Part shown: one piece after another, positions 1-12,247 of the stretch | How positions within the stretch are numbered: position 1 is the first letter of the stretch | How the letters are laid out: every line of letters starts with the position of its first letter | DNA from: Verrucomicrobiales bacterium | Lineage (GTDB): Bacteria > Verrucomicrobiota > Verrucomicrobiia > Verrucomicrobiales > DEV007 | Direction of reading: 5' to 3' | Assembly (NCBI GenBank): GCA_024641425.1 | Contig: JAHEDC010000156.1 | Span: forward strand, 1-12,247 | Length of the DNA: 12,247 nucleotides | Translations under genes and position numbers: made by a program | Notes under the pieces: model-generated | What the model was told of the DNA's origin: nothing | What the model saw: the letters and a program-made list of their open reading frames with translations, nothing else | Databases searched by the model: none

Positions 1-1508
1 GCATCTTCGACTCGCTGAACTACACCCCGAACATGAAAGCCGCCATGGAGGCTGTCCGGGCCACCGAATTCGGCCTCTGCGAGGCCGCCATCTGCTATAC
101 CGGAGACATCCTCGATCCCAAACGCGACAAATACAGCCTCAACTACTACGTCGAACTCGCGAAGGAACTCGAGCGTATGGGCGCCCACATCCTCGCCATC
201 AAGGACATGGCCGGCCTCTGCCGGCCCTACGCTGCCTTCAAGCTCGTCAAGGCCCTCAAGGAAGCGGTCGGCATCCCCATCCACTTCCACACCCACGACA
301 CCAGCGGCCTGAACGCCTCGTCGATCCTCCAGGCCGCCGACGCCGGAGTCGACATCGCCGATGCCGCCCTCGCCTCGCTTTCCGGCTCGACCAGCCAGCC
401 CAACCTCAATTCCATCGTCGCCGCCCTCGAGCACACCGACCGCGCCACCGGCCTCGACCGCGAGACCCTCGACGAGTTCTCCGACTACTGGGAGCACGTC
501 CGGACTTACTATTTCCCCTTCGACACCTCGCCCCCCCACGGCTCCGCCGAAGTCTATCTCCACGAAATGCCCGGCGGCCAGTTCACCAACCTCAAGGAAC
601 AGGCCAACGCCATGGGCCTCGGGCACCGCTGGCCCGAGATCGCCCACTGCTATGCCGAGGTCAACCAGCTCTTCGGCGACATCGTCAAGGTCACCCCCTC
701 GAGCAAGGTCGTCGGCGACATGACGATGTTCCTCGTCACCCAGGGCATTCAGTGCGCCGACGTCCTCGACCTTCCGCCCGGCACCAATTTCCCGGAATCG
801 GTCGTCGACATGCTCGCCGGCGGGCTCGGGCAGCCCATGGGCGGCTGGCCTAAGGATCTGCAGAAAGTCGTCCTCGGCGACCGCGTACCCCTCACCGACC
901 GCCCCGGTGACCACGCCGCACCCATGGATCTCGAGCAGGTGCGCGGCGAGTTGGAGGCCAAGATCAAACGCGTTCCCTCCGACGACGACCTCTTCAGCTT
1001 CGTCATGTACCCGCAGGTCTTCCTCGAATACGAGGCCTTCCGGAAGAAATTCAGCGACGTCTCCGTCCTCCCCTCCAGCGCCTACTTCTACGGACTCAAT
1101 ACCGGCGAGGAGATCAGTGTCGATATCGAGGAAGGCAAAACCCTCTTCATCAAGCTCATTCACGTCAGCGAGGCCGACAGCGACGGGCAATGCACCGTCG
1201 TCACCGAACTCAACGGGGTCCCTCGCCACGCCCACATCGCTGACGCCCACATCAAACCCACCACCGAGGCCCGCGCGCAGGCCGATCCGGCGAACCCGAA
1301 TCACGTCGGCGCCCCCATGCCCGGCATGGTCACCGGCGTCGCCACCTCGGTCGGGAAGAAGGTCAAGGCCGGAGACAACCTCCTCACCCTGGAAGCCATG
1401 AAGATGTTCACCACCATCACCGCCCCCCAGGATGGCATCGTGGAGAAAATCACCGTCACCACCGGCGACCAGGTCTCGAGCAAGGACCTCCTCGTCGTCC
1501 TCAAATAG
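1..1508 (+). CDS. pyc: Pyruvate carboxylase, C-terminal ~500 aa (carboxyltransferase + tetramerisation + biotinyl/BCCP domains). 5'-partial: reading frame is open from position 3 and continues beyond the window edge.
   Basis: Translation IFDSLNYTPNMKAAMEAV...GDILDP...HILAIKDMAGL...IPIHFHTHDTSGL (carboxyltransferase TIM-barrel metal-binding motif) ...VYLHEMPGGQFTNL... ending in biotinyl-domain motif EAMKMF (Lys codon 1401-1403). Stop TAG at 1506-1508. Collinear with single-chain PC (or the PycB subunit of two-subunit enzymes). Confidence 0.9.
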   Translation, partial: IFDSLNYTPNMKAAMEAVRATEFGLCEAAICYTGDILDPKRDKYSLNYYVELAKELERMGAHILAIKDMAGLCRPYAAFKLVKALKEAVGIPIHFHTHDTSGLNASSILQAADAGVDIADAALASLSGSTSQPNLNSIVAALEHTDRATGLDRETLDEFSDYWEHVRTYYFPFDTSPPHGSAEVYLHEMPGGQFTNLKEQANAMGLGHRWPEIAHCYAEVNQLFGDIVKVTPSSKVVGDMTMFLVTQGIQCADVLDLPPGTNFPESVVDMLAGGLGQPMGGWPKDLQKVVLGDRVPLTDRPGDHAAPMDLEQVRGELEAKIKRVPSDDDLFSFVMYPQVFLEYEAFRKKFSDVSVLPSSAYFYGLNTGEEISVDIEEGKTLFIKLIHVSEADSDGQCTVVTELNGVPRHAHIADAHIKPTTEARAQADPANPNHVGAPMPGMVTGVATSVGKKVKAGDNLLTLEAMKMFTTITAPQDGIVEKITVTTGDQVSSKDLLVVLK

Positions 1509-1574: not shown

Positions 1575-2144
1575 TCATCCCCCTGGATTTACCGGTTTCG
1601 CCTGCCAGAAAGCCTCTAGAAGAGTCCTTTCCCGAGCTTTCCAATCGGAAGCCGAATCGCTGACCTCGACAACGACGATGCCTGCGCTCGAAAGCTTTTT
1701 TAAGACCTCCAGGCCCCGTGCGAAGGCGACTCCTATATTCGAGTCGATCAATAGTAATGGGATCGAGCCAGCCACGCGCCCCGTTTCGGCATAGGCCCGA
1801 AACTTCGCCTCCAGTTCTGAGAGCGAGACCACATCCTTATCCATTGCCACTTCATTCTCGCGCACCTGGATCGTAATTCCACACGCTGCAGAGCCCGGCG
1901 AATGAAACTCGATCTCCGCCGCAAGCTCCGGATGCCGGAAAAGAACCGGAGTCTCCCGGCACAGGACTCCCACCGAACAAAGGAAGTCCGAGAAATCCAG
2001 CGCATCCTCGTTCTCGATCAGAATGGAAGGCGAAGGGGGCGCTTCAGCCTTCGCCGCGGGTTCTTCGCCTGGTCGTGAACATGACACCAACAAAAATACC
2101 ACGCTCAAACCGATGGGCATCCAGTGCCTTACCACCTTTTTCAT
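1575..2144 (-). CDS. Predicted lipoprotein (189 aa): signal peptide + lipobox LLVSC, Pro/Ala-rich linker, then a ~130-aa globular domain. Last gene of the operon; start overlaps the stop of the upstream giant gene (ATGA).
   Basis: N-terminus MKKVVRHWMPIGLSVVFLLVS|C matches the SPase II lipobox [LVI][ASTVI][GAS]C. The start ATG (2144-2142) overlaps the stop TGA (2143-2141) of the 1690-aa ORF. A strong SD, GGGAGCGAAGG, lies immediately upstream. The segment PLLLIDSNIGVAFARGLEVLKKLSSAGIVVVEV loosely resembles the ExbD/TolR periplasmic-domain pattern; this is a tentative eyeball similarity only. Confidence 0.6.
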   Translation of the reverse strand: MKKVVRHWMPIGLSVVFLLVSCSRPGEEPAAKAEAPPSPSILIENEDALDFSDFLCSVGVLCRETPVLFRHPELAAEIEFHSPGSAACGITIQVRENEVAMDKDVVSLSELEAKFRAYAETGRVAGSIPLLLIDSNIGVAFARGLEVLKKLSSAGIVVVEVSDSASDWKARERTLLEAFWQAKPVNPGG

Positions 2145-5100
2145 CCTTCGCTCCCATCCTTCCTCACCTTCTGGCGAACCCTCGATTTCACATCAACGGG
2201 GAGTTTCTCCGGTACGTTAGCTTCGGGAGCGGCATCTTCACCGTCATGAACCGGCACGACCTTGATTTCAACATCCACCGGCACGGCCCTAATATTCGCG
2301 ATGATGCGCTCTAGTTTCGAAACGGTTTCGTCCGCGAGAGTCGCCGGTTTGGCCTGATGTTCCTGACCGAGGCGCAGGATGTCCTCGATCTTCTCCAAGC
2401 CTTCGGTGAAACCGGACATCTGGGCGACGACGCGACTGACCGGATCGCCCTCCGCGCCACCGAGCAGCTTCTGCTTGTTGAAAGCCTTCTTGATCTGTTC
2501 CCAGCGCGCGGCCTGCTTCTCGCTCTGGGCGGATTCGAGTTCGTAAAACTTCAGGAGGTTCGCCTCGGAGTCGGCGGTGAGGGTCTGGGATTCGTTCTCG
2601 TAGTGATTTCGGATCACGATTTCCACTTCCTCTGCGGTCATGAGGGCGAGGATTTTCTCAGCGATCCGGTTCATGTTCCGGTAACTCCCCTGTAACTTGA
2701 AGGAGGGCTCGGTACGATAAGCATCCTGTTGCGCGGCGGAGCGGATGTACTCCTGGTTCACCCTCAAAATGGTATCCCTTACGCGCATGAGTTTCTTCGT
2801 CACCGCGACCATTTCCTCGATTTCTTCGACGGTGTAGTTCCCTTCAAAATCGGCCCCTTCGCGGCTCCCGGTCGCGGCGATCTTCAGCACCGTGTAAACG
2901 TCCGCCTGACTGCGGCTCGCCATTTTGCCGAGCACGGGATTACTGGTGAGCGCGTTCTCGATGTAAGACGTTTCGAAGAAGGATGCGTTGCCGCCCACGA
3001 TGTCGCCGAGATTGTAGGTATCGGCGCGGTTCGCGAGCATATCCGGGATTTGGAAGCGCCCGCCGCTCTCGGTGTAAGGGTTCCCGGCCATGACAACCGC
3101 GACTTTCTTCCCGCGCAAATCGTAAGTGCGGGCCTTGCCCTTGTAGACTCCCTCCATCTTTCGCTGACCGTCGCAGAGGGAGATGAATTTTTGGAGAAAC
3201 TCGGTATTGCAGTGCTGGATGTCGTCGAGATAGATCATCACGTTGTCCCCCATCTCCAGCGCGAGGTTCAGTTTCTGCACCTCCTCCCGGGCACTGGCAT
3301 TCGGCGCTTCCGTCGGATCGAGTGATGTCACCTGATGCCCGATCGCGGGGCCGTTGATCTTCATGAAGGTGATGCCCAGACGATTCGCGATATACTCCAT
3401 AAGCGTCGTCTTACCGTAACCGGGCGGCGACACGAGCAGCAGGAGTCCCATGCGGTCCGTGCGGGTATCGGAACCGACAGTCCCGATCTGTTTGGCGAGG
3501 TTGTCTCCGATGATGGGAAGATAGACCTCGTCGATCAGTTTGTTCCGAACGAAAGAAGTCATCACTCGCGGCTTGAACTCGCCGAGGCGCATCGCTTCAC
3601 GCGTCTTTTCGACAAGCGTCTTTTTCAGGGCAACGAAACACTCGAAACGTGGAACTTCCCCGACCTCGAAGGCCCGAAGGCGCGCCACAAAGTGGTTGTA
3701 ATGGAAGTCGTAACTGCCTTCGACAATGAGCGGATGACTACCGGTCATTCCTTCGATTCTTGCGGATGAAAGCACATCGACAACGTCGCGCTTTTGATGC
3801 CCGCCGCGCACGAGATGGGCGGCGGCTTCCGCGACGTATTCCTGCGTCTCAAGCTTCGCGCTCGCGCCATAACCCGTCAGCCAGTCGGAAGCGATCTCGA
3901 AGCGCCCCACAACGTCCTCGCCCAAGGCCTCCCCGGCGGCGGCGAATTTCTTGTCCATCCTCCTTTCGGTCAACTGGATCTTAAAACCATGGAGTATGTC
4001 CGCTGCTTCCCGGCTGACCGTAAAGTTCGTCTCATCGACGAGTTCATCGAAGAGATAGGCGGCGGCTTCGACCGCATCCCCTCTCAGGAAAGCATGACGA
4101 ACGCAAAATCTCGCGATTTCAGACTCCAGTCGCTTTACGTATTCCACTTGCGGGCCACGACCGGCGAACATTCCGGACATCGTTCCATAGGAACGGATCC
4201 GCGCCGCCAACGCTTCCTTGCCCGCGTCGTTCCATTGCTCCCAAAAGAGTAGACCGAGCGCGCGGTCTTCCGGGGCATAGCGCAAAAGTCCGATGGCCTC
4301 ATGAATCCGAAGCAATTCCGCCAGAATCCGCGCGGCATCCTCGTCATGGACGCCTTTGACATAGCCTTCCGCGTAGCGCGGGGCCATGAAACGCTGGACG
4401 TCCTCCCGCAGCGACTCCGTGAGGCCGCCTCCAGACTGGAGATACTGCCAGGCGAGATACTCGGAACGGTAAACGCGGTTATTCTCCGAGACGACCTCCT
4501 GATCCCAGACCTCCCGCGTGGCATCGAAGGCAGGATCATCGATGCGCTCGAAGAAATTCGTGCCCGTGAGATGGTAGAACTGCGCGTCGTTCCGCCGCAC
4601 AACCGTCAGCTCCAAGGGCTGGGTATTGACCGAGAATTGGTGCTTCCCGAAACGGATGATGTTCTCGCAATCGACAAACAACTCCTGCCGATCCTTCAAT
4701 TGACGCACCGCGTCCTCGCGCGTTGCCTTGAGCTTCGTCTGGAGATCGTCCGCCTTCACCGAGTCGCCGAGCGCGGTCAATTCGCGAATGACATCGCGGA
4801 TCTTTTCGATCATGAGGTCGCTGGCCAGGTAACCATTGATCTCGTTGATCGTCTTGAGCCCGTCGAGACGGCGGCGCACGCTGGTCAGTATCCTTTCCGC
4901 TGACTGCTGGAGTGCGCCGGTCCGTTTGTTCCGCGACTCAACCAAGGCGACCTTGCGCGACTCGAAGGCATTGTAAATCTCCTCCCGCTTCTCGCCTAGT
5001 TGGGCGACATATTCGTCGAATTCGCTGAACTTCCCCTCCAGTTCCTCCAACTGGATCATGACCTTCGAGAGATACTCGTCGCACTTGTCCGGCTCGCCGC

Positions 5101-7213
5101 AGAGGTCGAGGTAGTTGACGACAGCCTGATTCAGCAACTTGATCTGCGCGCCGAACTGGGCCACACCCTCCGAGCGCGACAATTCGCGGCGGCGGCTTTT
5201 CAGCTCCACCCGAACCTGGTTCAGCGTCGCATAGATGGTCGAAACATCATCGATTATCTGGGTTGTCTGCGTCGAGTCGGCGATCTTGAGATTGCCGACG
5301 ATGTCGATGAGCATCTCCAACTCGCCCCCCCCGGCATTGAGCGCCTTTTCCACTTCGTCGGCCTCGATCGTCTTCGCCACTTTCGGCACCTGCTTCCGCT
5401 GCTCTTCAACCTGTCCCCGATAGGGATCAAGAGCCTCGGGTTTCAGGAGAAACTCAACACAATGTTGCGATATCCTCTCCGTGGTCTCGCCGAGACTCGC
5501 CTCCAGTTTGTCGACATGCTCCGGATCCGAATAACGGAGGTCGCGAAGCGAGATCGCCTCCCCTCGAGCGGCCCGAAGTTCGGCCAGGTAATGGACAAAA
5601 CCCATGATGTCGTCCGGCGGCGCATGGCTCGCCGCATTAACGAGCTTGGCCGCTTTCTTCGTAACCCGGTCGGTTTCCGCCTTCGTCGACAGGCGGAGCC
5701 GCCGCACCTTGTCGAACTCACCGATGGCGGCCTGAGCCGCCCCCTTGATCTCGACCAAGGCAACCTTCAGATTCTGTGCCTCCTCCTTCGCGATCCAGAA
5801 ATAGGCGTCCGCGACGTCGCCGGCCTTTTTCACCAGATCAAGGTAGAGTCCGGCGTAGCTGTCATTCTTTCCGATCAGGTTCAGGATTTCCTGACATTCC
5901 GCCATACACCGGACAATATCGGCGTTCCCGACCTTGTAGAGATAGGAATCCGTCCGCGCGTGCGGCTGGATATTCTCGTGCACGAAGGGAGTCTGCCACA
6001 CCTGGAGCGTATGATGTTTCTGCGGTTCGTCCTCGCATTTGAAGTAAACGAGCTCGCCGTTGGCGAAAAGCGAGTAGCCGTTGCAGATGATCGGCGTCTC
6101 GACCTGCTGCTGGATGATGTTATACGACAGGAGGATGTAGAGACCGGTGCGACGGTTGTAGAAAACGTGGAGATAGTCCTCGCCGTTGGGAGAAGCGATC
6201 CGGCGCTCGAAAAGCATGTCCTTGAGCCGGTTCCCGAAGATCTTGTGCTCACCGCTCTGCAGATAGTAGCCGTCGCTGAAAATAATCCCGTGATCGTCGG
6301 GCAGAAGGACACAGGAATGCTCGATCGCATCGACGCGCGTCACCGTCTGCGTCTTCTCGTTGAAGATGAGATTCCGGTAGAGCTTTTCCTGGTAGGGACG
6401 GATTTTGAGCAGGATAAGACTGCCGACGAGGGCGTAGAAGATCTCCGCGTCGTCCAACGTCTGGTCCGGCTCGGTGACATCCTCCCGGTAGATCCCTTCC
6501 CCGCTCGCGGTATTGTCTTCGATCTTGATCGTCAGGTCGCCGCCAACGGTTTCCACGAAGACGCGATCCTCGATGGAGATGTGCGGGAACTCCCCGCCGC
6601 GATGCATGTCGCGATGCGCCCGCTTCCATTCGAATTCCTGCTGAGGGGGGAAAAGGTATTCGTGGTCGAAACGGTTCCCGAGATACTCCAGGGTCCCGTC
6701 GTTCGGCCGCCGCCACTTGAAAGCCTTGATGTCCGTCACGTCCTTCCCAACGCGGAAGGCCATGTAAAGGTGCGGCCCGATGACCATGAACTTCGCGAAG
6801 ATCGTCTCCTTGTAATACTTGTAGAGATGATCGAAGTCGGTCAGGAAATCGCCACCCAGCAACTCGCTCGCGTCTTTTTCGGAGAAGGCATGGGTTTCCG
6901 CATCATGCTCGTAGAAGGCAAAGACATCCGAGATCGCGGTCGTCGAACGCAGACCGATATGGACGTTGTAGCCGAAAATGAAGCGACCGCCGCCGATGGC
7001 GATCATGTCGCGCGGCACGCAGTTGTTCGAGGTCGTGATGCGCTCGGTCGCGATAAGCGCCGTCGGTACGGCTCCGAAAACTTCCTGCCGGTCCGCGTTC
7101 AGTTTGTCGAGGCGAACGCGCAAATCCGCGCCATGCTTTTCCAGCCGGCTCCGAATAATCTCGTAGGCACCGCCTTCGAGCGTGGGTTGGGCGTTGGGAT
7201 CGGCGTCAGGCAT
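2141..7213 (-). CDS. Giant uncharacterised protein (1690 aa). N-terminal ~470-aa domain of unknown fold, central long coiled-coil/helical region (~aa 480-1200), C-terminal MoxR/CbbQ/NorQ-type AAA+ (AAA_5) ATPase module (~aa 1215-1410) and a ~280-aa helical, charged C-terminal tail.
   Basis: Walker A LLLLVSPPGYGKTTL (aa 1258-1272; GYGKTT at nt 3404-3421), Walker B NVMIYLDDIQHCN (nt ~3215-3238), sensor-1-like VVMAGNPY and an Arg-containing LANRAD motif. The order and spacing of these motifs are typical of AAA_5/MoxR-clade ATPases. The central part has long E/K/R/L/Q-rich heptad-like stretches (e.g. KVMIQLEELEGKFSEFDEYVAQLGEKREEIYNAFESRKVALVESRNKR). High GC3 is consistent with coding. The antisense 774-aa ORF on the + strand has no motifs and is rejected. 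Confidence 0.85.
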   Translation of the reverse strand: MPDADPNAQPTLEGGAYEIIRSRLEKHGADLRVRLDKLNADRQEVFGAVPTALIATERITTSNNCVPRDMIAIGGGRFIFGYNVHIGLRSTTAISDVFAFYEHDAETHAFSEKDASELLGGDFLTDFDHLYKYYKETIFAKFMVIGPHLYMAFRVGKDVTDIKAFKWRRPNDGTLEYLGNRFDHEYLFPPQQEFEWKRAHRDMHRGGEFPHISIEDRVFVETVGGDLTIKIEDNTASGEGIYREDVTEPDQTLDDAEIFYALVGSLILLKIRPYQEKLYRNLIFNEKTQTVTRVDAIEHSCVLLPDDHGIIFSDGYYLQSGEHKIFGNRLKDMLFERRIASPNGEDYLHVFYNRRTGLYILLSYNIIQQQVETPIICNGYSLFANGELVYFKCEDEPQKHHTLQVWQTPFVHENIQPHARTDSYLYKVGNADIVRCMAECQEILNLIGKNDSYAGLYLDLVKKAGDVADAYFWIAKEEAQNLKVALVEIKGAAQAAIGEFDKVRRLRLSTKAETDRVTKKAAKLVNAASHAPPDDIMGFVHYLAELRAARGEAISLRDLRYSDPEHVDKLEASLGETTERISQHCVEFLLKPEALDPYRGQVEEQRKQVPKVAKTIEADEVEKALNAGGGELEMLIDIVGNLKIADSTQTTQIIDDVSTIYATLNQVRVELKSRRRELSRSEGVAQFGAQIKLLNQAVVNYLDLCGEPDKCDEYLSKVMIQLEELEGKFSEFDEYVAQLGEKREEIYNAFESRKVALVESRNKRTGALQQSAERILTSVRRRLDGLKTINEINGYLASDLMIEKIRDVIRELTALGDSVKADDLQTKLKATREDAVRQLKDRQELFVDCENIIRFGKHQFSVNTQPLELTVVRRNDAQFYHLTGTNFFERIDDPAFDATREVWDQEVVSENNRVYRSEYLAWQYLQSGGGLTESLREDVQRFMAPRYAEGYVKGVHDEDAARILAELLRIHEAIGLLRYAPEDRALGLLFWEQWNDAGKEALAARIRSYGTMSGMFAGRGPQVEYVKRLESEIARFCVRHAFLRGDAVEAAAYLFDELVDETNFTVSREAADILHGFKIQLTERRMDKKFAAAGEALGEDVVGRFEIASDWLTGYGASAKLETQEYVAEAAAHLVRGGHQKRDVVDVLSSARIEGMTGSHPLIVEGSYDFHYNHFVARLRAFEVGEVPRFECFVALKKTLVEKTREAMRLGEFKPRVMTSFVRNKLIDEVYLPIIGDNLAKQIGTVGSDTRTDRMGLLLLVSPPGYGKTTLMEYIANRLGITFMKINGPAIGHQVTSLDPTEAPNASAREEVQKLNLALEMGDNVMIYLDDIQHCNTEFLQKFISLCDGQRKMEGVYKGKARTYDLRGKKVAVVMAGNPYTESGGRFQIPDMLANRADTYNLGDIVGGNASFFETSYIENALTSNPVLGKMASRSQADVYTVLKIAATGSREGADFEGNYTVEEIEEMVAVTKKLMRVRDTILRVNQEYIRSAAQQDAYRTEPSFKLQGSYRNMNRIAEKILALMTAEEVEIVIRNHYENESQTLTADSEANLLKFYELESAQSEKQAARWEQIKKAFNKQKLLGGAEGDPVSRVVAQMSGFTEGLEKIEDILRLGQEHQAKPATLADETVSKLERIIANIRAVPVDVEIKVVPVHDGEDAAPEANVPEKLPVDVKSRVRQKVRKDGSEG

Positions 7214-7388
7214 CGGTTTCTACCCCTTTTTCGTGATCGCGCGGCGTGGACTCCAACAACCGGCAAAGTTCGTCGAGTTCCGACATCTTCTCCTGACGAA
7301 GCCGCTTCGCATTCACGTCCATAGAGATCCATCCCATCACGATGGCAGCATACGGGACGATCTTTGTGCTTTCGCCCAAGTCAGTCAT
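7206..7388 (-). CDS. Candidate small protein (60 aa) between flotillin and the giant AAA+ gene. Short hydrophobic patch (IVPYAAIVMGWISM) followed by a charged helical tail. Stop overlaps the giant gene start by 8 nt.
   Basis: An ATG at 7388 is preceded by a purine-rich stretch GGAAAGGACGGAAGCGA, which is SD-like. Codons are GC3-biased (~70%). The 3' end ...ACC GAT GCC TGA overlaps the ATG of the 1690-aa ORF (ATGCCTGA), a geometry typical of translational coupling. It fills an otherwise 246-nt gap inside a tightly packed operon. Random ORFs of this length are common in high-GC DNA, hence moderate-low confidence. Confidence 0.35.
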   Translation of the reverse strand: MTDLGESTKIVPYAAIVMGWISMDVNAKRLRQEKMSELDELCRLLESTPRDHEKGVETDA

Positions 7389-7459
7389 TCGCTTCCGTCC
7401 TTTCCGTTGCGCGCGTTTCTGGATCGGCGGTAAGGTTCATCGCGTGGGGATTCTGCCTT

Positions 7460-9538
7460 TTACCCTTTCAGTTTCCCGACTACCTTCTCGGCCTTCTCGT
7501 GGGCAAGGCCAAAGCGGGTGGCGGCGTGGAGCATATCGGTGATCCCGGCGGTCGTCTTCTCATCCGGGCCAAGGGAGAGCATCTTCCCCAGCATGGCGCT
7601 GACGGTCAGGTTCTTCACGTCCTCGCTGGCGATGCCGAAGTCGGTGAGCCACTTGCCAAGCTGCGACTTGAAATACTCAGGATCCCCGTTGAAAAAGGTG
7701 TCCCGGACATCGGTAAGCGTGCGGCTGTTCTCGACCGCGCGGTCGACCGCCTTACCGCTCGTGATCGCCTGCGTAATCTTATCGAAGAACTGGGTTTCCC
7801 CGCCCACGATATCGATTTTCGCCGCCCGGAGGGCCTCGGCGACGACGCGGGCCTGCTCGGCCGCGATGAGCCGCTGGGCGTCGATCCCCGCCAGCTCGAC
7901 GGCTTTCGCCTTTTCCAGGTTGAGCTTGAATTCCTCGTGGCTTTGTCCGGCTTCCTCGAAGAGCTTCATCGCTCCGGCCTTTTCGGTAATACCCTTCGCC
8001 TCGGCAGCGAACTTCAGCTCGGACACCTTGGCCTCGGCGGTGCCCTGTTTCTCGGTCGCACCGGCGCGGGCCTCCAAGACTTGGGCCTCGCCTAATCCGG
8101 GCGCGGCGGTTTCAGCGGTCGTGGCTTCCGCAAGGAGGCGCTTCGCCGACGAATCCTTCTCGGCGGCGGCCTGACGGGCCTCGGCCTCGATGACAATCTC
8201 CTCGGCGTGGCGTTCGGCCGAAACCTTCGCCGCCTCGGCGTGCTTGATCTGCTCGTAGGCTTCCTGGTCGGCTTTCAGGATGGCCGCTTCCTTGTCCGCT
8301 TCCGCGGCCTTGATCCGCTTGAGCAAAGCCTCCTGCGCTTCTTTCTCGGCCCGGGTAATCGCGACCTGCTTCTCCCGGTCGGCGGTCGCGAAGGCCTCGG
8401 TGTCCTTGATCTTCTGTTCTTCAATGACCACGGTTTTCTCCAACGCGACGCGATCCTTGATCACTTCCTGGATATTCTTCTTCTCGATTTCGACCGATTT
8501 GTCCCGTTCGATTCCCTTCAGGGCGGTCAGGCGGTCGCGCTCGATGATCTCCAGGTCGCGGTCGCGAGTCACGCGCTCGTTCTCGACCGCTTCCGTCCGC
8601 TCCTTGTTTTTCAAGGCGACAATGATCTGCCGGTTCTTGTTTTCCTCCGCGATGGAAAGCTCCTCCTCGGTCGCGATGCGCGCCTGTTCGGACTTGAGCC
8701 GCTGTTCCTCCTGCACCTTCTTCGCGTCCGCCTGCTCCCGGGCCTGCACTTCCTGCACCTTCCTCGCCTGCTGGGCCTCGGTTTCGGCGAGTTGGCGCTC
8801 CAGTTCCAGGATGGCCTCGCGGGCCTCCACGTCCTGCTGTTTGATCACCCTCTCCTTGTCGCGCTGGATGTTGTTGCTCAGTTTCGCCTGCGCTGCCGTC
8901 AACTCGGTGATCTTCTTGATCCCTTCGGCGTCGAGGATGTTGTTCGGATCCATCGACGAGAGCGCCGTCTGTTCGAGATAATCGATGGCCGCGTCGTCGA
9001 GGACGTAGCCGTTCAGGTCGGTGCCGATGACCTTGAGGATCTCCTCCTTGAAGGTGTCGCGGTTCTCGTAGAGTTCGACGAAATCGAAGCGCTTCCCGAC
9101 CGTCTTCAAGCCCTCGGAGAACTTCGCGTCGAAGAGCGTCTCCAGTGTCCCGTGGTTGGAAGCCCGGTCGCAGCCGATCGATTGGGCGACCCGGATGACC
9201 TCCTTGGCCTCGTTGTTGATGCGGACGAAAAACGCGACCTTGATGTCGGCGCGGATGTTGTCCTTGCAGATCAGTCCGTTGTTCCCGCTCCGGTCGATCT
9301 CGATTCGTTTCACCGAAATGTCCATGTATTCCGCCCGATGAAGGATAGGGATTACAAGTCCGGCCGTGAAATAGACTTTCGTCCCCCCCTGCCCGTTCCG
9401 CACCAGGGCCTGCCCCTGCTGAACCTTGCGGTAGCATTTGACGATGAGGAAAAGGAATCCGATCAGGATCAGGACGCCGCCGCCGGCGCCAAAGCCAATG
9501 ACCTTCTGGGTGAATTGATCTGCGATGATGGTCTTCAT
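7460..9538 (-). CDS. SPFH/band-7 flotillin-family protein (692 aa), YqiK/FloT-like. N-terminal membrane-anchoring hydrophobic hairpin, SPFH domain, very long EA/KE-rich coiled coil and a flotillin-type C-terminal domain.
   Basis: N-terminus ...KVIGFGAGGGVLILIGFLFLIV (membrane hairpin). SPFH core ...RIEIDRSGNNGLICKDNIRADIKVAFFVRIN...DFVELYENRDTFKEEILKVIGTDLNGYVLDDAAIDYLEQT, which parallels the flotillin motif TVEEIYKDRQKF...SDL...G. About 350 aa of E/A/K/Q-rich coiled coil (EAQQARKVQEVQAREQADAKKVQEEQRLK...). C-terminal AEAKVSELKFAAEAKGITEKAGAMKLFEEAG is the flotillin signature region. Stop TAA 7460-7462; start 6 nt downstream of the yqiJ-like stop. Confidence 0.9.
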   Translation of the reverse strand: MKTIIADQFTQKVIGFGAGGGVLILIGFLFLIVKCYRKVQQGQALVRNGQGGTKVYFTAGLVIPILHRAEYMDISVKRIEIDRSGNNGLICKDNIRADIKVAFFVRINNEAKEVIRVAQSIGCDRASNHGTLETLFDAKFSEGLKTVGKRFDFVELYENRDTFKEEILKVIGTDLNGYVLDDAAIDYLEQTALSSMDPNNILDAEGIKKITELTAAQAKLSNNIQRDKERVIKQQDVEAREAILELERQLAETEAQQARKVQEVQAREQADAKKVQEEQRLKSEQARIATEEELSIAEENKNRQIIVALKNKERTEAVENERVTRDRDLEIIERDRLTALKGIERDKSVEIEKKNIQEVIKDRVALEKTVVIEEQKIKDTEAFATADREKQVAITRAEKEAQEALLKRIKAAEADKEAAILKADQEAYEQIKHAEAAKVSAERHAEEIVIEAEARQAAAEKDSSAKRLLAEATTAETAAPGLGEAQVLEARAGATEKQGTAEAKVSELKFAAEAKGITEKAGAMKLFEEAGQSHEEFKLNLEKAKAVELAGIDAQRLIAAEQARVVAEALRAAKIDIVGGETQFFDKITQAITSGKAVDRAVENSRTLTDVRDTFFNGDPEYFKSQLGKWLTDFGIASEDVKNLTVSAMLGKMLSLGPDEKTTAGITDMLHAATRFGLAHEKAEKVVGKLKG

Positions 9539-9544
9539 TGTTTT

Positions 9545-10225
9545 CTACGCCTCGTTGGTTTCGATTCTCGTTTTGCGGACAAAGTAGAGTCCGCGGCTTG
9601 GGTCTTCTTCGATGACAAGGCACTCGTCGCCCTTGACCAGGCGCGCGCTGCCCTCGTGGATTCTTGCATTGATGATCAATGGAGCCCCTTCCGTCGCGAT
9701 CTCCACCTGACCAAAAGTGGCCGACACGTCGGTGCTCGTGACAACGCCCGCCCGTCCCACCATCGGTTCCTGCTTCTCTTCCTCGCTCCGCAGCTTCCGC
9801 ATGACGGAGCGGAAGGGCGTGCTCACAACTTTCGTCACCAAAGCACTGACAAACACGCCCCCACTAAGGACAAGCAGCGCCGGAAGGATCGCGCCATTCG
9901 GATTGAGGAAATGGTTTCCCAACATCGAAATCATCCACAGGATCACCGAAAAAATGCTGAGGATCAACATGAAGGGCACATCGCCCACGTTCAGGAAACG
10001 AAGCACAGCCATGAAGGATCCTCCCGTACCGTCGGCATCCATCTCGTGGTCGATCTCATGATGCACTTCCGTGTCCACGTGCACGTCGTGGTCGACATCC
10101 ACATCAAAGGAATCCATATCCAGCGCCCCGAAGCTCACCCCGATCCAGTAAAGGACGACCGCTCCAAAGAGAATGGTCAGAGGTAGATTGTACCAGAGAA
10201 CCGCTTCTGTGATCAGCTCTTTCAT
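9545..10225 (-). CDS. YqiJ/NfeD-like inner-membrane protein (226 aa): N-terminal TM helix, Asp/His-rich loop, 2-3 further TM helices, C-terminal NfeD-type OB-fold (beta-barrel) domain. First gene of the operon and partner of the flotillin.
   Basis: Hydrophobic segments LPLTILFGAVVLYWIGVSF, VPFMLILSIFSVILWMISMLG and AILPALLVLSGGVFVSALV. C-terminal VGRAGVVTSTDVSATFGQVEIATEGAPLIINARIHEGSARLVKGDECLVIEEDPSRGLYFVRKT fits the NfeD short-form OB-fold (G-x-A-x-V ... G-x-V ... G..V.V). Gene order NfeD-like then flotillin, as in E. coli yqiJ-yqiK and B. subtilis yuaF-floT. Confidence 0.8.
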   Translation of the reverse strand: MKELITEAVLWYNLPLTILFGAVVLYWIGVSFGALDMDSFDVDVDHDVHVDTEVHHEIDHEMDADGTGGSFMAVLRFLNVGDVPFMLILSIFSVILWMISMLGNHFLNPNGAILPALLVLSGGVFVSALVTKVVSTPFRSVMRKLRSEEEKQEPMVGRAGVVTSTDVSATFGQVEIATEGAPLIINARIHEGSARLVKGDECLVIEEDPSRGLYFVRKTRIETNEA

Positions 10226-10259: not shown

Positions 10260-10300
10260 TTGGCGATTATAATTGGCTAGCCCGTTTGTATAATCGGTGG
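10260..10300 (-). promoter_or_regulatory. Possible promoter/operator for the minus-strand operon. The palindrome ATTATAAT (10266-10273) gives a TATAAT hexamer on both strands. A second TGTATAAT lies at 10287-10294.
   Basis: A minus-strand TATAAT (complement of 10266-10271) lies ~35-40 nt upstream of the yqiJ-like ATG (10225), an appropriate -10 position. No convincing -35 was found. The + strand extended -10-like TGTATAAT at 10287-10294 would point toward the 10540 gene. Confidence 0.25.
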
Positions 10301-10410
10301 CCAAGGAATCGCCCCCATCCTCGCGGGATGAAGTCTTCGTTGCAGAAAGTGGCCGAGCCTACGTCGCGCAGGACGCCCCCCCCGCCCTGTCCCTTCCTTC
10401 CCGTGGCTCA

Positions 10411-10500
10411 GATTATAAATATTCACGAAATGTCCTTAAAATTATAATATTTGTATTGCGCTGTGCATTTTTTGTAATAAAATGTAATTACCATATTTTC
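10411..10500. promoter_or_regulatory. About 90-bp AT-rich island (roughly 20% GC in a >60% GC background) in the divergent intergenic region. Likely promoter for the + strand gene at 10540 and possibly an UP/regulator-binding region for the divergent operon.
   Basis: Sequence GATTATAAATATTCACGAAATGTCCTTAAAATTATAATATTTGTATTGCGCTGTGCATTTTTTGTAATAAAATGTAATTACCATATTTTC. A + strand TTGTAA (10472-10477), 16-nt spacer and TATTTT (10494-10499) would put a TSS near 10506, ~34 nt before the ATG at 10540. ATTATAA(T) palindromes lie at 10412-10419 and 10441-10448. TGTAAT direct repeats at 10473-10478 and 10483-10488 are 10 bp apart. Confidence 0.35.
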
Positions 10501-10539
10501 CGTGATCTCACGACACCGCCTTGCCGACAGGCTGGAGTG

Positions 10540-11088
10540 ATGGAAACCGAGACGACTCAATCAAACGACCGCAACAAAATGAAAATGCAGCCCGCCCACT
10601 TCGGTACCCAATCCTTCAACATCGCCCGCATCTACGATACCGTGATCGATGTCAGCGAGGGTGAGATCGTCTTCGAGATCGAGCTTCGGCTTCGCCATAC
10701 CAACCAGCAGGTATTCTTCGGTATCCTGACCACGCCTCAGCCGGGGGCGGGAAGTTCTTCGATGGATTACGGGATCGGCGTAAGCATCGACACCCAGACC
10801 GGCACGGTGCGCGATGTGGTGAACGGCCAGGGAATCATCGGGCATCTGGAGTTGACCCCAATGGAGATCAACGAGTCGCTTTTTCTCTGCATCGAGGCGG
10901 AAAAACTAAACCGGATCTTCATTCCGAAGATTACCGTCGGGGAGGACAAAATGCTCCACCCCGCGCTCCACATCGAGCGGTGCACCCAGATGAGTCTTGT
11001 CGTCGGCACCACCGACATGTCGCGCGGGGCGATCTTCGAGAATCCTCACTTTGTCATCGCCCGGCGCCGGCCCAGCATTTCCGCCTGA
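10540..11088 (+). CDS. Hypothetical protein (~182 aa), probable SPRY/B30.2-like or similar beta-sandwich domain. Divergently oriented from the flotillin operon.
   Basis: The ORF-track ORF 10297..11088 runs through the AT-rich island, so the in-frame ATG at 10540 (GGAG at 10534-10537 just upstream) is taken as the start. An alternative is the ATG at ~10576. GC3-rich codons. Motifs GEIVFEIELRL...QVFFGILT...YGIGVSIDTQTGTV...SLFLCIEAEKLNRIFIPKITVGE...LHPALHIE resemble the SPRY pattern (YWEVE...G.G...SWG...GD.IG..LD...L.F..NG...LYP.V.L). The fold call is tentative. Confidence 0.55.
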   Translation: METETTQSNDRNKMKMQPAHFGTQSFNIARIYDTVIDVSEGEIVFEIELRLRHTNQQVFFGILTTPQPGAGSSSMDYGIGVSIDTQTGTVRDVVNGQGIIGHLELTPMEINESLFLCIEAEKLNRIFIPKITVGEDKMLHPALHIERCTQMSLVVGTTDMSRGAIFENPHFVIARRRPSISA

Positions 11089-11334
11089 GGCGGCGTGGGG
11101 AGAATCGGCCCCGCAATACATACGAAATCCGATTTCCACATAAATACCTATCCGGATCCCTCCGGAGCAGCAGCCGCGCCGCCATTATTTTCGGTCGCGG
11201 CTCTGTCTGTCTTGTGAAGACGGGAATTTGTGACGACCTGTGCAATCGAGATCCAGTCCTCCAGGAGCAGCGTGTTTCTCCAAACGGCCCCTTTCGGCCA
11301 CTTGCTGCTTTCGGGGAATGCGCCATAGTCGAGG
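11089..11334 (+). promoter_or_regulatory. 246-nt GC-rich leader upstream of mgtE with several stem-loops. Candidate cis-regulatory RNA (an Mg2+-sensing M-box-type riboswitch would be the obvious hypothesis) and/or promoter. Not confirmed.
   Basis: Hairpins seen: CCGCC-tga-GGCGG (11081-11093, stop codon in loop), GTGGGG-agaatcgg-CCCCGC (11095-11116), and AGCCGCG...CGCGGCT (about 11171-11203) followed by the pyrimidine-rich CTGTCTGTCTTGTG. I cannot verify M-box consensus by eye. Confidence 0.2.
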
Positions 11335-12247
11335 ATGATCCACTGGAAGCCGTTGCTCGATGCTCTCGAGGCTGGCGACGAACCCACCGTTCGCAGCCTG
11401 TCGGACGCGATGCATCCGGCGGACGCCGCCGCTTTCTTCGGCAGTCTGGATGATCGGGACCGGCACCGGATCGCCGGCTTCATGAGCGCGCAGGCGCTCG
11501 ACCTCGTCGCGACCTTTCTTGAGCCCTCCGAGGCCGCCGACCTTTTCCACGGCGTGCCCCACGCCCGTTTGGCCGACACTCTGAACGGCTTGCCCGACGA
11601 CATCCTCGTCGATATCCTTCAGGAACTCGAGCCCGAGCTCCGCGAGGACTACTTCCTTCTCCTCTCGGATGCGAAGCGCGCCCTCGCGGCCAAGCTGCTC
11701 TCCTTCCCCGAGGAATCCGCGGGCGGCAGGATGACGACCGCCATGGCCACCGTCCGCGAGGACATGACGATCCGGCAGGCCATCGACGAACTCGGGGCGA
11801 AGAAGGAGGAAACCGAGGTGCTCGCCCGGATTTTCGTCGTCGACGAGGAAGGCCATATCCTCGGCAAGGTGCGTCTGCGCGACCTCACCTTCAATCCCCG
11901 CAGCATGCTCGTCCGCGACATCATGGACGACGAGCGGCTCGCCATCAACGCCCACGCCGACCAGGAGGAAGCCGTCGCCATGATGCGGAAATACAACCTC
12001 ATCGCGCTTCCCGTCGTCAGCGACCACGGGCGGCTTCTCGGCGTCATCACGCACGACGACGCCATGGACATCCAGACCGAGGAATCGACCGAGGACATCG
12101 AGCGCATGAGCGCCATTGGCGGCACGCGGGACGACGAGGGCTACCTGCGCTCGTCCGTGGCGGCGCACCTACGCCGGCGCTTCTTCTGGATTCTCGGCCT
12201 GGCCTTCATCGGCATCCTTTCAGGGATCGTCCTCTACAATTTCGAGG
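11335..12247 (+). CDS. mgtE: Magnesium transporter MgtE, N-terminal ~304 aa (MgtE-N domain, tandem CBS domains, start of TM domain). 3'-partial: runs off the window.
   Basis: Translation MIHWKPLLDALEAGDEPTVRSLSDAMHPADAAAFFGSLDDRDRHRIAGFMSAQALDLVATFLEPSEAADLF... (MgtE-N helical domain), ...FPEESAGGRMTTAMATVREDMTIRQAIDEL... and ...RDIMDDERLAINAHADQEEAVAMMRKYNLIALPVVSDHGRLLGVITHDDAMDI (CBS pair with the MgtE-typical GG-x-MTT motif), then RRFFWILGLAFIGILSGIVLYNFE (first TM helix). No stop before the window end. The ATG at 11335 has GAGG immediately adjacent, which is poor spacing, so the true start could differ slightly. Confidence 0.88.
   Translation, partial: MIHWKPLLDALEAGDEPTVRSLSDAMHPADAAAFFGSLDDRDRHRIAGFMSAQALDLVATFLEPSEAADLFHGVPHARLADTLNGLPDDILVDILQELEPELREDYFLLLSDAKRALAAKLLSFPEESAGGRMTTAMATVREDMTIRQAIDELGAKKEETEVLARIFVVDEEGHILGKVRLRDLTFNPRSMLVRDIMDDERLAINAHADQEEAVAMMRKYNLIALPVVSDHGRLLGVITHDDAMDIQTEESTEDIERMSAIGGTRDDEGYLRSSVAAHLRRRFFWILGLAFIGILSGIVLYNFE

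Follow-up and report, generated by a model that had tools for sequence, protein, structure and literature searches.

A Verrucomicrobial instance of the predicted YqiJ-like/flotillin/AAA+ ATPase system

The closest described relative of the genes treated here is an operon predicted by comparative genomics, in which a YqiJ/YuaF protein, a Band-7/flotillin protein and a beta-propeller/coiled-coil/AAA+ protein are encoded together and often joined to CesT-PspA (Ravi et al., 2024, mSystems; bioRxiv 2020; PMC11237479). The published order is CesT_Tir, YqiJ-YuaF, Band-7 + coiled coil + flotillin and beta-propeller + coiled coil + AAA-ATPase, and an entry from Dokdonia donghaensis (ANH61663.1, Table S3 of PMC11237479) has a matching gene order. 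Abbreviated operons with flotillin, YqiJ/YuaF and sometimes the ATPase are widespread and may act with PspA encoded elsewhere (PMC11237479). Here, we describe a locus of this kind from a Verrucomicrobiales bacterium. The whole stretch analysed, termed the window, is the complete 12,247-bp contig JAHEDC010000156.1. Its minus strand encodes a YqiJ-like membrane protein, a YqiK-type flotillin and an AAA+ ATPase of 1690 amino acids (aa), designated the giant, together with a 60-aa open reading frame (the micro-ORF) and a predicted lipoprotein. All three components of the published operon were recognized in the window by their own features, in the same order and on the same strand. Whereas the full published form additionally has a CesT/Tir-PspA dyad and a divergent repressor, the window lacks these and has orphan genes for the lipoprotein and the micro-ORF. 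Without PspA, CesT and repressor, it therefore corresponds to the abbreviated form. The window adds a new Verrucomicrobial case to a system already known from computational prediction. An earlier note on this DNA had regarded the association as undescribed, which does not hold: both the three-component operon and its abbreviated form are already in the literature (PMC11237479).

Conservation of the three-gene module and its link to PspA

At least 586 matches to the giant were confirmed among species-representative genomes. Eighty loci from these matches and three from close relatives make up the 83 related loci considered here (numbered with an L), and their six-frame ORFs were searched with the five window proteins. 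Upstream DNA of 2.5 kb or more was available for 67 loci; in 64 of these, the flotillin gene (E 1e-110 to 1e-300) is located directly upstream of the giant gene and on the same strand, and a YqiJ-like gene precedes the flotillin gene in 56 of 61 loci. At least six phyla are represented: Verrucomicrobiota, Planctomycetota, Bacteroidota, Desulfobacterota, Kiritimatiellota and Clostridia. The same three genes were recovered when two flotillin homologues served as the starting point. Close relatives of the window also keep the three-gene arrangement, with 58-66% identity across many Verrucomicrobiales genera. When all ORFs of 84 loci (the 83 and the window) were clustered, no further gene common to the family was found downstream of the giant. 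The conserved module very probably consists of the YqiJ-like protein, the YqiK-type flotillin and the giant ATPase, and the synteny supports a functional tie between the giant gene and the NfeD-like/flotillin pair.

The earlier note had made its proposal depend on synteny of giant homologues with flotillin genes, and this synteny was found in the 64 loci described above. Its five-gene operon stands in part: the three co-oriented genes are conserved, but micro-ORF and lipoprotein have no homologue in the 83 loci. To speak of a 'membrane-microdomain-anchored ATPase machine', as was done there, remains a reasonable reading.

A divergent subgroup from Limisphaerales, Pedosphaera and other Verrucomicrobiota (L048, L058, L066, L068 and L079) yields weaker flotillin matches (E 1e-114 to 1e-135). 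In four of its five loci no YqiJ-like gene was detected, while L068 has no upstream DNA on which to judge. L048 and L079 encode a coiled-coil protein of about 300 aa without Pfam match directly 3' of the giant.

Seventeen Bacteroidota loci carry a gene for PspA/IM30 (Pfam, 121 bits), which lies upstream and on the same strand in 16 of them, and a CesT_Tir_1 chaperone (173 bits) is encoded in 15 of these 17. A divergent gene for a regulator composed of HTH_3 (helix-turn-helix, HTH) and an S24-like domain is present in 15 Bacteroidota loci (L037, L041, L046, L047, L053, L054, L056, L060, L063, L069, L070, L074, L076, L077 and L080). The Bacteroidota loci thus reproduce the full published form with divergent cHTH-plus-protease gene, CesT and PspA. 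The S24-like regulator, which is of the self-cleaving CI/LexA type, hints at induction by damage or a RecA-type signal. In two Phycisphaerae loci, the gene immediately 3' of the giant encodes PspA (50.7 and 76 bits; Table 1). This arrangement is a second, independent linkage to PspA, unlike the upstream CesT-PspA dyad of Bacteroidota. SHOCT and DUF4178, which have been named as partners in the phage shock protein (PSP) network (PMC11237479), were both found in variable slots of the loci, SHOCT in the spacer between flotillin and giant genes and DUF4178 after the giant.

Six loci of the Planctomycetes-Verrucomicrobia-Chlamydiae group (L001, L006, L008, L012, L029 and L031) encode an HTH protein of about 160 aa of the Phage_CP76 (phage CII-like) type beside the yqiJ-like gene. 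Its gene is located about 3 kb upstream of the giant and is divergent in the four Verrucomicrobial loci with listed orientation, but on the same strand in L031. It may be a lineage-specific regulator. In the window, no homologue of this protein was found.

The giant ATPase and the two membrane proteins

The giant falls into existing Pfam families: DUF3686 (620 bits, aa 30-472), DUF7902 (94 bits, aa 593-677) and, at aa 1258-1381, AAA (33 bits) and AAA_5 (25.7 bits). Neither a transmembrane (TM) segment nor a signal peptide is predicted. A word-indexed search of a 5.8-billion set yielded more than 5700 homologues; aa 1-1200 form 1421 clusters at 50% identity, and homologues with as little as about 28% identity still have the full-length architecture. 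The family also extends to Acidobacteriota and Sumerlaeota. A full-length homologue is also present in a eukaryotic protein set (EukProt g33011.t1), which could be due to contamination or horizontal transfer, and another one of 1950 aa bears additional HEAT-repeat matches in Pfam (homologues P0504/P0482).

AlphaFold2 models were built on 57-sequence alignments and have a mean predicted local distance difference test score (pLDDT) of 85.4 for aa 1-1200 and 80.8 for aa 1150-1690. They divide the protein into the regions listed in Table 1, among them an all-beta propeller that forms the core of DUF3686 and a long-helix region with helices of 25-58 residues all along its length, which encloses DUF7902. 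In Foldseek searches against the PDB, the beta domain matched Elp1, the WD40 domain of DCAF1, PON1, Ycf48, Vps18 and the N-terminal propeller of clathrin (E 8e-6 to 2e-3). The AAA+ core is structurally nearest to members of the MoxR class (AAA_5/helix-2-insert) and has, in the model, the pre-sensor-1 beta-hairpin, which follows the Walker B strand and precedes the strand of sensor 1. As modelled, the giant has a single MoxR/midasin/dynein-like AAA+ module.

Its motifs comprise Walker A (GYGKT, 1265-1269), Walker B (DD, 1330-1331), sensor-1 (N1378) and R1396. In an alignment of 25 sequences with 31-53% identity, GYGKT, D1330-D1331 (in DDIQH), N1378, R1396 and QGSYR are invariant. Walker B reads YLDDIQH (aa 1327-1331 at window positions 3221-3235), and its Asp-Asp is kept down to 31% identity. 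Because the AAA+ motifs are invariant, the giant is probably an active ATPase.

The first gene of the module encodes a protein that passes Pfam YqiJ_N with 28.6 bits (cut-off 23) and in which three hydrophobic segments (3 TM) are followed by a C-terminal soluble domain. A weak BLASTP alignment to E. coli YqiJ (E 0.002) includes the soluble C-terminal part; a direct Pfam match to NfeD (oligonucleotide/oligosaccharide-binding fold) was not obtained for this protein. The gene is located immediately 5' of the SPFH gene, with a gap of 6 nucleotides (nt) by reading of the sequence, which is the organization of an NfeD-SPFH two-gene module. The loop after TM1 (aa 35-65) is rich in His and Asp and contains the run DMDSFDVDVDHDVHVDTEVHHEIDHEMDAD (aa 35-60, window 10045-10120). 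This run resembles a segment that binds metal or is acidic and of low complexity, and in BLASTP nothing of E. coli YqiJ aligned with it.

The second gene encodes a 692-aa protein for which no match to Band_7 or any other Pfam family was found even at E 10, and PDB chains were matched neither by the single sequence nor by a 16-sequence profile. Despite these null results, a flotillin profile built from 16 sequences aligned strongly to E. coli YqiK in hhalign (probability 99.9, E 3.5e-36, 30% identity over 410 columns), and the flotillin identity is therefore settled. Besides its SPFH domain and a long coiled coil, the protein has a single TM segment at the N-terminus and a conserved extension at the C-terminus, and its relatives are named flotillin or YqiK in several public sources. 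It is a genuine flotillin whose subfamily goes unrecognized by the Band_7 model and is an annotation blind spot. A precomputed PF01145 match was present in one of 120 relatives among the matches listed. Thus, the earlier assignments of the first gene as NfeD-like and the second as flotillin were both borne out.

Variable slots and flanking genes

The features of the window and the downstream PspA genes of the two Phycisphaerae loci are compiled in Table 1. The coordinates and junctions that the earlier note had given for all five minus-strand ORFs proved exact on re-reading.

Table 1. Features of the window, regions of the giant ATPase, and downstream PspA genes in two related loci
Feature	Coordinates	Strand	Size or residues	Basis
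Carboxylase-type ORF	33..1508	plus		HMGL-like, PYC_OADA and biotinyl domains
Predicted lipoprotein gene	2144..1575	minus	189 aa	ORF, signal peptide and LVSC lipobox
Giant ATPase gene	7213..2141	minus	1690 aa	ORF and Pfam DUF3686/DUF7902/AAA
Giant, N-terminal helix			aa 14-46	AlphaFold2 model
Giant, beta-propeller (core of DUF3686)	5993..7060	minus	aa 52-407	all-beta in model
Giant, long-helix/coiled-coil region	4688..5944	minus	aa 424-842	encloses DUF7902 (aa 593-677); model
Giant, small beta unit			aa 852-890	AlphaFold2 model
Giant, helical domain			aa 916-1135	AlphaFold2 model
Giant, AAA+ alpha/beta core	3014..3478	minus	aa ~1246-1400	model and motifs
Giant, helical lid and C-terminal helices			aa ~1400-1642	AlphaFold2 model
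Giant, disordered tail			aa 1644-1690	AlphaFold2 model
Micro-ORF	7388..7206	minus	60 aa	ORF only
Flotillin gene	9538..7460	minus	692 aa	ORF and profile alignment to E. coli YqiK
YqiJ-like gene	10225..9545	minus	226 aa	ORF and Pfam YqiJ_N
ORF without Pfam match	10297-11088	plus	263 aa	divergent from the operon
ORF without Pfam match	11185-12168	minus	327 aa	GC1 0.85
PspA gene downstream of the giant in L032	6790-7479			Pfam PspA/IM30
PspA gene downstream of the giant in L078	4766-5449			Pfam PspA/IM30

Between flotillin and giant genes, the window has a 246-nt gap (7214-7459) that harbours the micro-ORF, whose last 8 nt lie within the 5' end of the giant gene. Over 64 loci, the median spacer, measured to the start of the stop-to-stop ORF of the giant, is 126 nt; in the closest relative, whose giant is 66% identical, it is 78 nt. 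PDDEXK_3 genes occupy the spacer in six Verrucomicrobial loci (L004, L005, L007, L011, L034 and L039), and an IS200 transposase, SHOCT, DMP19, DUF3997 and DUF3592 were found in others (L009, L012, L028 and L077). The spacer is a variable insertion slot, where small, unrelated genes have landed repeatedly.

The micro-ORF has no match in Pfam, PADLOC, NCBIfam or PHROGs and no homologue in the 83 loci or among the spacer ORFs of other loci. Like the lipoprotein, it is a singleton at 90% identity in a 15-billion-protein collection. Its codon score is 0.24; spurious antisense ORFs score 0.33 and 0.24, and therefore the codon test does not discriminate. Both micro-ORF and lipoprotein were called as genes in the NCBI record. 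A coding status of the micro-ORF finds no support, and the system probably does not include it. A decayed PDDEXK_3 insert was ruled out as the origin of the spacer and micro-ORF (best tblastn E 0.38). A regulatory RNA in the spacer was likewise rejected, as Rfam gave no match anywhere in the window, the 246-nt spacer included. Promoter and terminator scans of the window yielded no excess over chance, and the absence of terminator-like sites from the intergenic gaps has to be read against this background.

The second slot follows the giant gene, whose stop codon shares an ATGA overlap with the start of the lipoprotein gene. The product of this gene is a lipoprotein as predicted from its signal peptide and LVSC lipobox. 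No homologue was found in the 83 loci, no relative in metagenome contigs and no sequence match in the PDB; its Pfam ExbD score of 18.4 bits lies below the cut-off of 25.4, so that it does not qualify as an ExbD/TolR protein. Its codon signature is the weakest among the operon genes, with a GC content at third codon positions of 0.62 compared to 0.75-0.84 for flotillin and giant and 0.71 for the YqiJ-like gene. In 27 of 72 loci, a nearby same-strand ORF follows the giant, and these ORFs are mostly mutually unrelated. They encode GNAT, PspA, DUF4178 and other proteins and are often tightly coupled; the GNAT gene of L086 overlaps the giant by 4 nt. In the closest relative, the gene after the giant is on the other strand. 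Since unrelated genes are tightly coupled at the same slot, the ATGA overlap is no evidence of partnership, and the earlier note's use of the tight junction as a sign of it cannot be maintained. The lipoprotein is predicted to be exported and the giant has neither TM segment nor signal peptide, which argues against direct contact. On these comparisons, the lipoprotein is a lineage-specific accessory or neighbour in a variable slot and stands outside the conserved module.

The carboxylase-type ORF at the left end of the window, which is of the biotin-carboxylase type, is convergent with the 3' end of the operon. It represents the C-terminal part of an oxaloacetate-decarboxylase-alpha or pyruvate-carboxylase-B-type protein, and its N-terminal part probably continues past the contig start. 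On the other side, the stretch upstream of the YqiJ-like gene has a lower GC content (0.50). The 263-aa ORF located there probably starts internally, around M82. For the 327-aa ORF, the GC content at first codon positions (GC1) of 0.85 suggests a shadow ORF whose true gene lies in a different frame or strand.

Proposed function and comparison with known systems

We infer, with a probability of roughly 0.55, that the giant uses ATP to remodel membrane assemblies of flotillin and/or PspA under envelope or membrane stress. As is usual for flotillins, the flotillin would oligomerize into an SPFH assembly at the cytoplasmic side of the inner membrane, and the YqiJ-like protein would be its NfeD-type partner. 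YqiJ-like protein and flotillin are membrane-anchored with the bulk of both in the cytoplasm, where the giant, devoid of TM segments, is located as well. AAA+ proteins generally oligomerize as rings, and the giant would do so through its AAA+ domain. Its propeller-tipped helical arms could then reach flotillin and/or PspA (ESCRT-III-type) assemblies, and ATP hydrolysis would assemble, remodel or dismantle them during stress. Functional analogies are Vps4 with its substrate ESCRT-III, FtsH enclosed in HflK/C cages, and MoxR ATPases, which mature the complexes of their partners.

Several points weigh against this proposal. The contact of the giant with flotillin or PspA is inferred, and the matches of its propeller and coiled coil are to generic folds that name no ligand. 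Three of the 67 loci (L024, L043 and L049) have no adjacent flotillin gene, and in the window no homologue of PspA, CesT or the HTH plus S24 regulator is encoded in any frame. As a rule, ATPases of the MoxR class act together with a VWA-domain protein; Pfam detected no VWA domain in the five window proteins, and none was found among the conserved neighbours. While the Walker B motif of AAA+ proteins is usually hhhhDE, the giant has DD, and its catalytic rate or mechanism may be atypical. The carboxylate, one methylene shorter, may cause slow or regulated hydrolysis.

A narrower version of the proposal is tentative: The giant might be a dedicated ATP-driven assembly or disassembly factor for flotillin cages and/or PspA polymers, i.e. 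a functional counterpart of Vps4. It would form a ring from which six arms, each with a propeller at its tip, hold on to the conserved C-terminal tail of flotillin. According to a 2025 review, a Vps4-like ATPase for PspA appears to be absent in bacteria (PMC7619361). By analogy, not by homology, the giant is a candidate for such a role.

Other readings of the locus give the giant different company or a different substrate. An anti-phage or conflict system, in which the ATPase on its SPFH scaffold would detect infection at the membrane and answer it in a protective or abortive way, would agree with the phage-type regulators that adjoin the module (the CI/LexA-like HTH plus S24 proteins in 15 Bacteroidota loci, the Phage_CP76-like HTH proteins in six loci of Verrucomicrobiota and Kiritimatiellota), with slot genes such as DMP19 and PDDEXK_3 and with a ParD antitoxin gene adjoining one further locus. 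In Oceaniferula spumae (L004, 12938-17092), a ubiquitin-like cluster (Multi_ubiq/Prok-E2, JAB/ThiF and BubE) plus a deaminase is located about 1.8 kb 3' of the giant; such a conflict-system neighbourhood was met in this one locus only. However, effector domains such as nucleases or toxins are absent from the core, most of the flanking genes have housekeeping functions and differ between loci, and the module looks vertically conserved in Verrucomicrobiales (58-66% identity across many genera). The defence catalogue lends no help to this reading: in PADLOC-DB 2.0, the best matches of the cluster, IetA (17.1 bits) and mad8 (16.1 bits), are not significant and do not exceed the P-loop level, and PHROGs yielded generic ATPase matches only. 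A defence role is unlikely. We consider it even less probable that all five genes of the window form one machine with micro-ORF and lipoprotein as stoichiometric subunits, the lipoprotein being a periplasmic partner organized by the flotillin-ATPase complex. The 8-nt and ATGA overlaps, the gene calls in the NCBI record, the lipoprotein-like genes after the giant in L054 and L049 and the occurrence of lipoproteins in other PspA operons (PMC11237479) would fit such a machine, but the lipoprotein-like genes of L054 and L049 are not homologous to that of the window, both small genes are singletons absent from the 83 loci and from the closest relatives, and no metagenome relative of the lipoprotein exists among the contigs searched. 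Furthermore, unrelated genes fill the same slot, some of them with a 4-nt overlap (GNAT in L086), the codon usage of the lipoprotein gene is unlike that of the core genes, and an exported lipoprotein would be separated from a cytoplasmic giant. A periplasmic lipoprotein partner, as envisaged in the earlier note, is at odds with the same observations.

The public annotation suggests yet another role, in which the giant would work on DNA as a motor similar to RuvB: NCBI calls the giant 'DNA repair ATPase', and the title of Pfam DUF3686 is 'ATPase involved in DNA repair'. RuvB and MCM are among the top Foldseek matches, and a LexA-like regulator is encoded in Bacteroidota loci; this S24-like protein could be one source of the label. 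Yet the likeness to RuvB is confined to the generic AAA+ core (NCBIfam RuvB 25.6 bits, cut-off 282), the Foldseek TM-scores (template modelling) are 0.22-0.35, Pfam detected no DNA-binding domain in the giant, and its obligate neighbours are membrane proteins. Nor was DUF3686 or PF12458 named in any paper of the library searched. With RuvB below threshold and no DNA-binding domain detected, the label was rejected. A function in DNA repair is hardly credible, and the public name, which has no support, is misleading.

The giant is almost obligatorily encoded beside one flotillin subfamily and repeatedly beside PspA. For the turnover of flotillin and PspA assemblies, in which a component that consumes energy is missing, it is a concrete candidate, and the domain map and the motif list provide direct handles for mutagenesis. 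Literature searches found no experimental study of the giant ATPase, and other papers on flotillin and PSP do not treat it. As the association has already been published as comparative genomics, the window adds an instance and a refinement, not a discovery. The published description is confined to comparative genomics (PMC11237479), whereas the MoxR/midasin class and the DD Walker B come from the present analysis. Also added here are the dynein likeness within that class assignment, the two variable slots, the downstream PspA arrangement and the rejection of the 'DNA repair' label.

The first two genes of the window resemble yuaF-floT of B. subtilis, which is also an NfeD-flotillin pair. With yqiJ-yqiK of E. 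coli, the window shares the YqiJ_N domain, the 3-TM layout and the position of the NfeD-like gene immediately upstream. In E. coli, however, yqiK is followed by sibD/ibsD and not by an ATPase gene, while the window has the giant. Its flotillin is about 140 aa longer than YqiK, has the conserved C-terminal extension and escapes Band_7. Compared to the MoxR class (NorQ, CbbQ, RavA), midasin and dynein, the giant has a single AAA+ module, which is preceded by about 1200 residues that make up the propeller, the coiled coil and the helical domain. It differs from the MoxR class by the absence of a VWA partner gene, by DD in Walker B and by an AAA_5 score of only 25.7 bits. AAA+ machines coupled to SPFH cages or to ESCRT-III/PspA polymers are established. 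The giant, which is closest to another AAA+ clade than FtsH and Vps4, has no protease domain, TM segment or MIT domain, and homology to these two is limited to the AAA+ fold. What it shares with FtsH-HflK/C and Vps4-ESCRT-III is a theme, the coupling of an AAA+ ATPase to an SPFH scaffold or a polymer of the PspA family.

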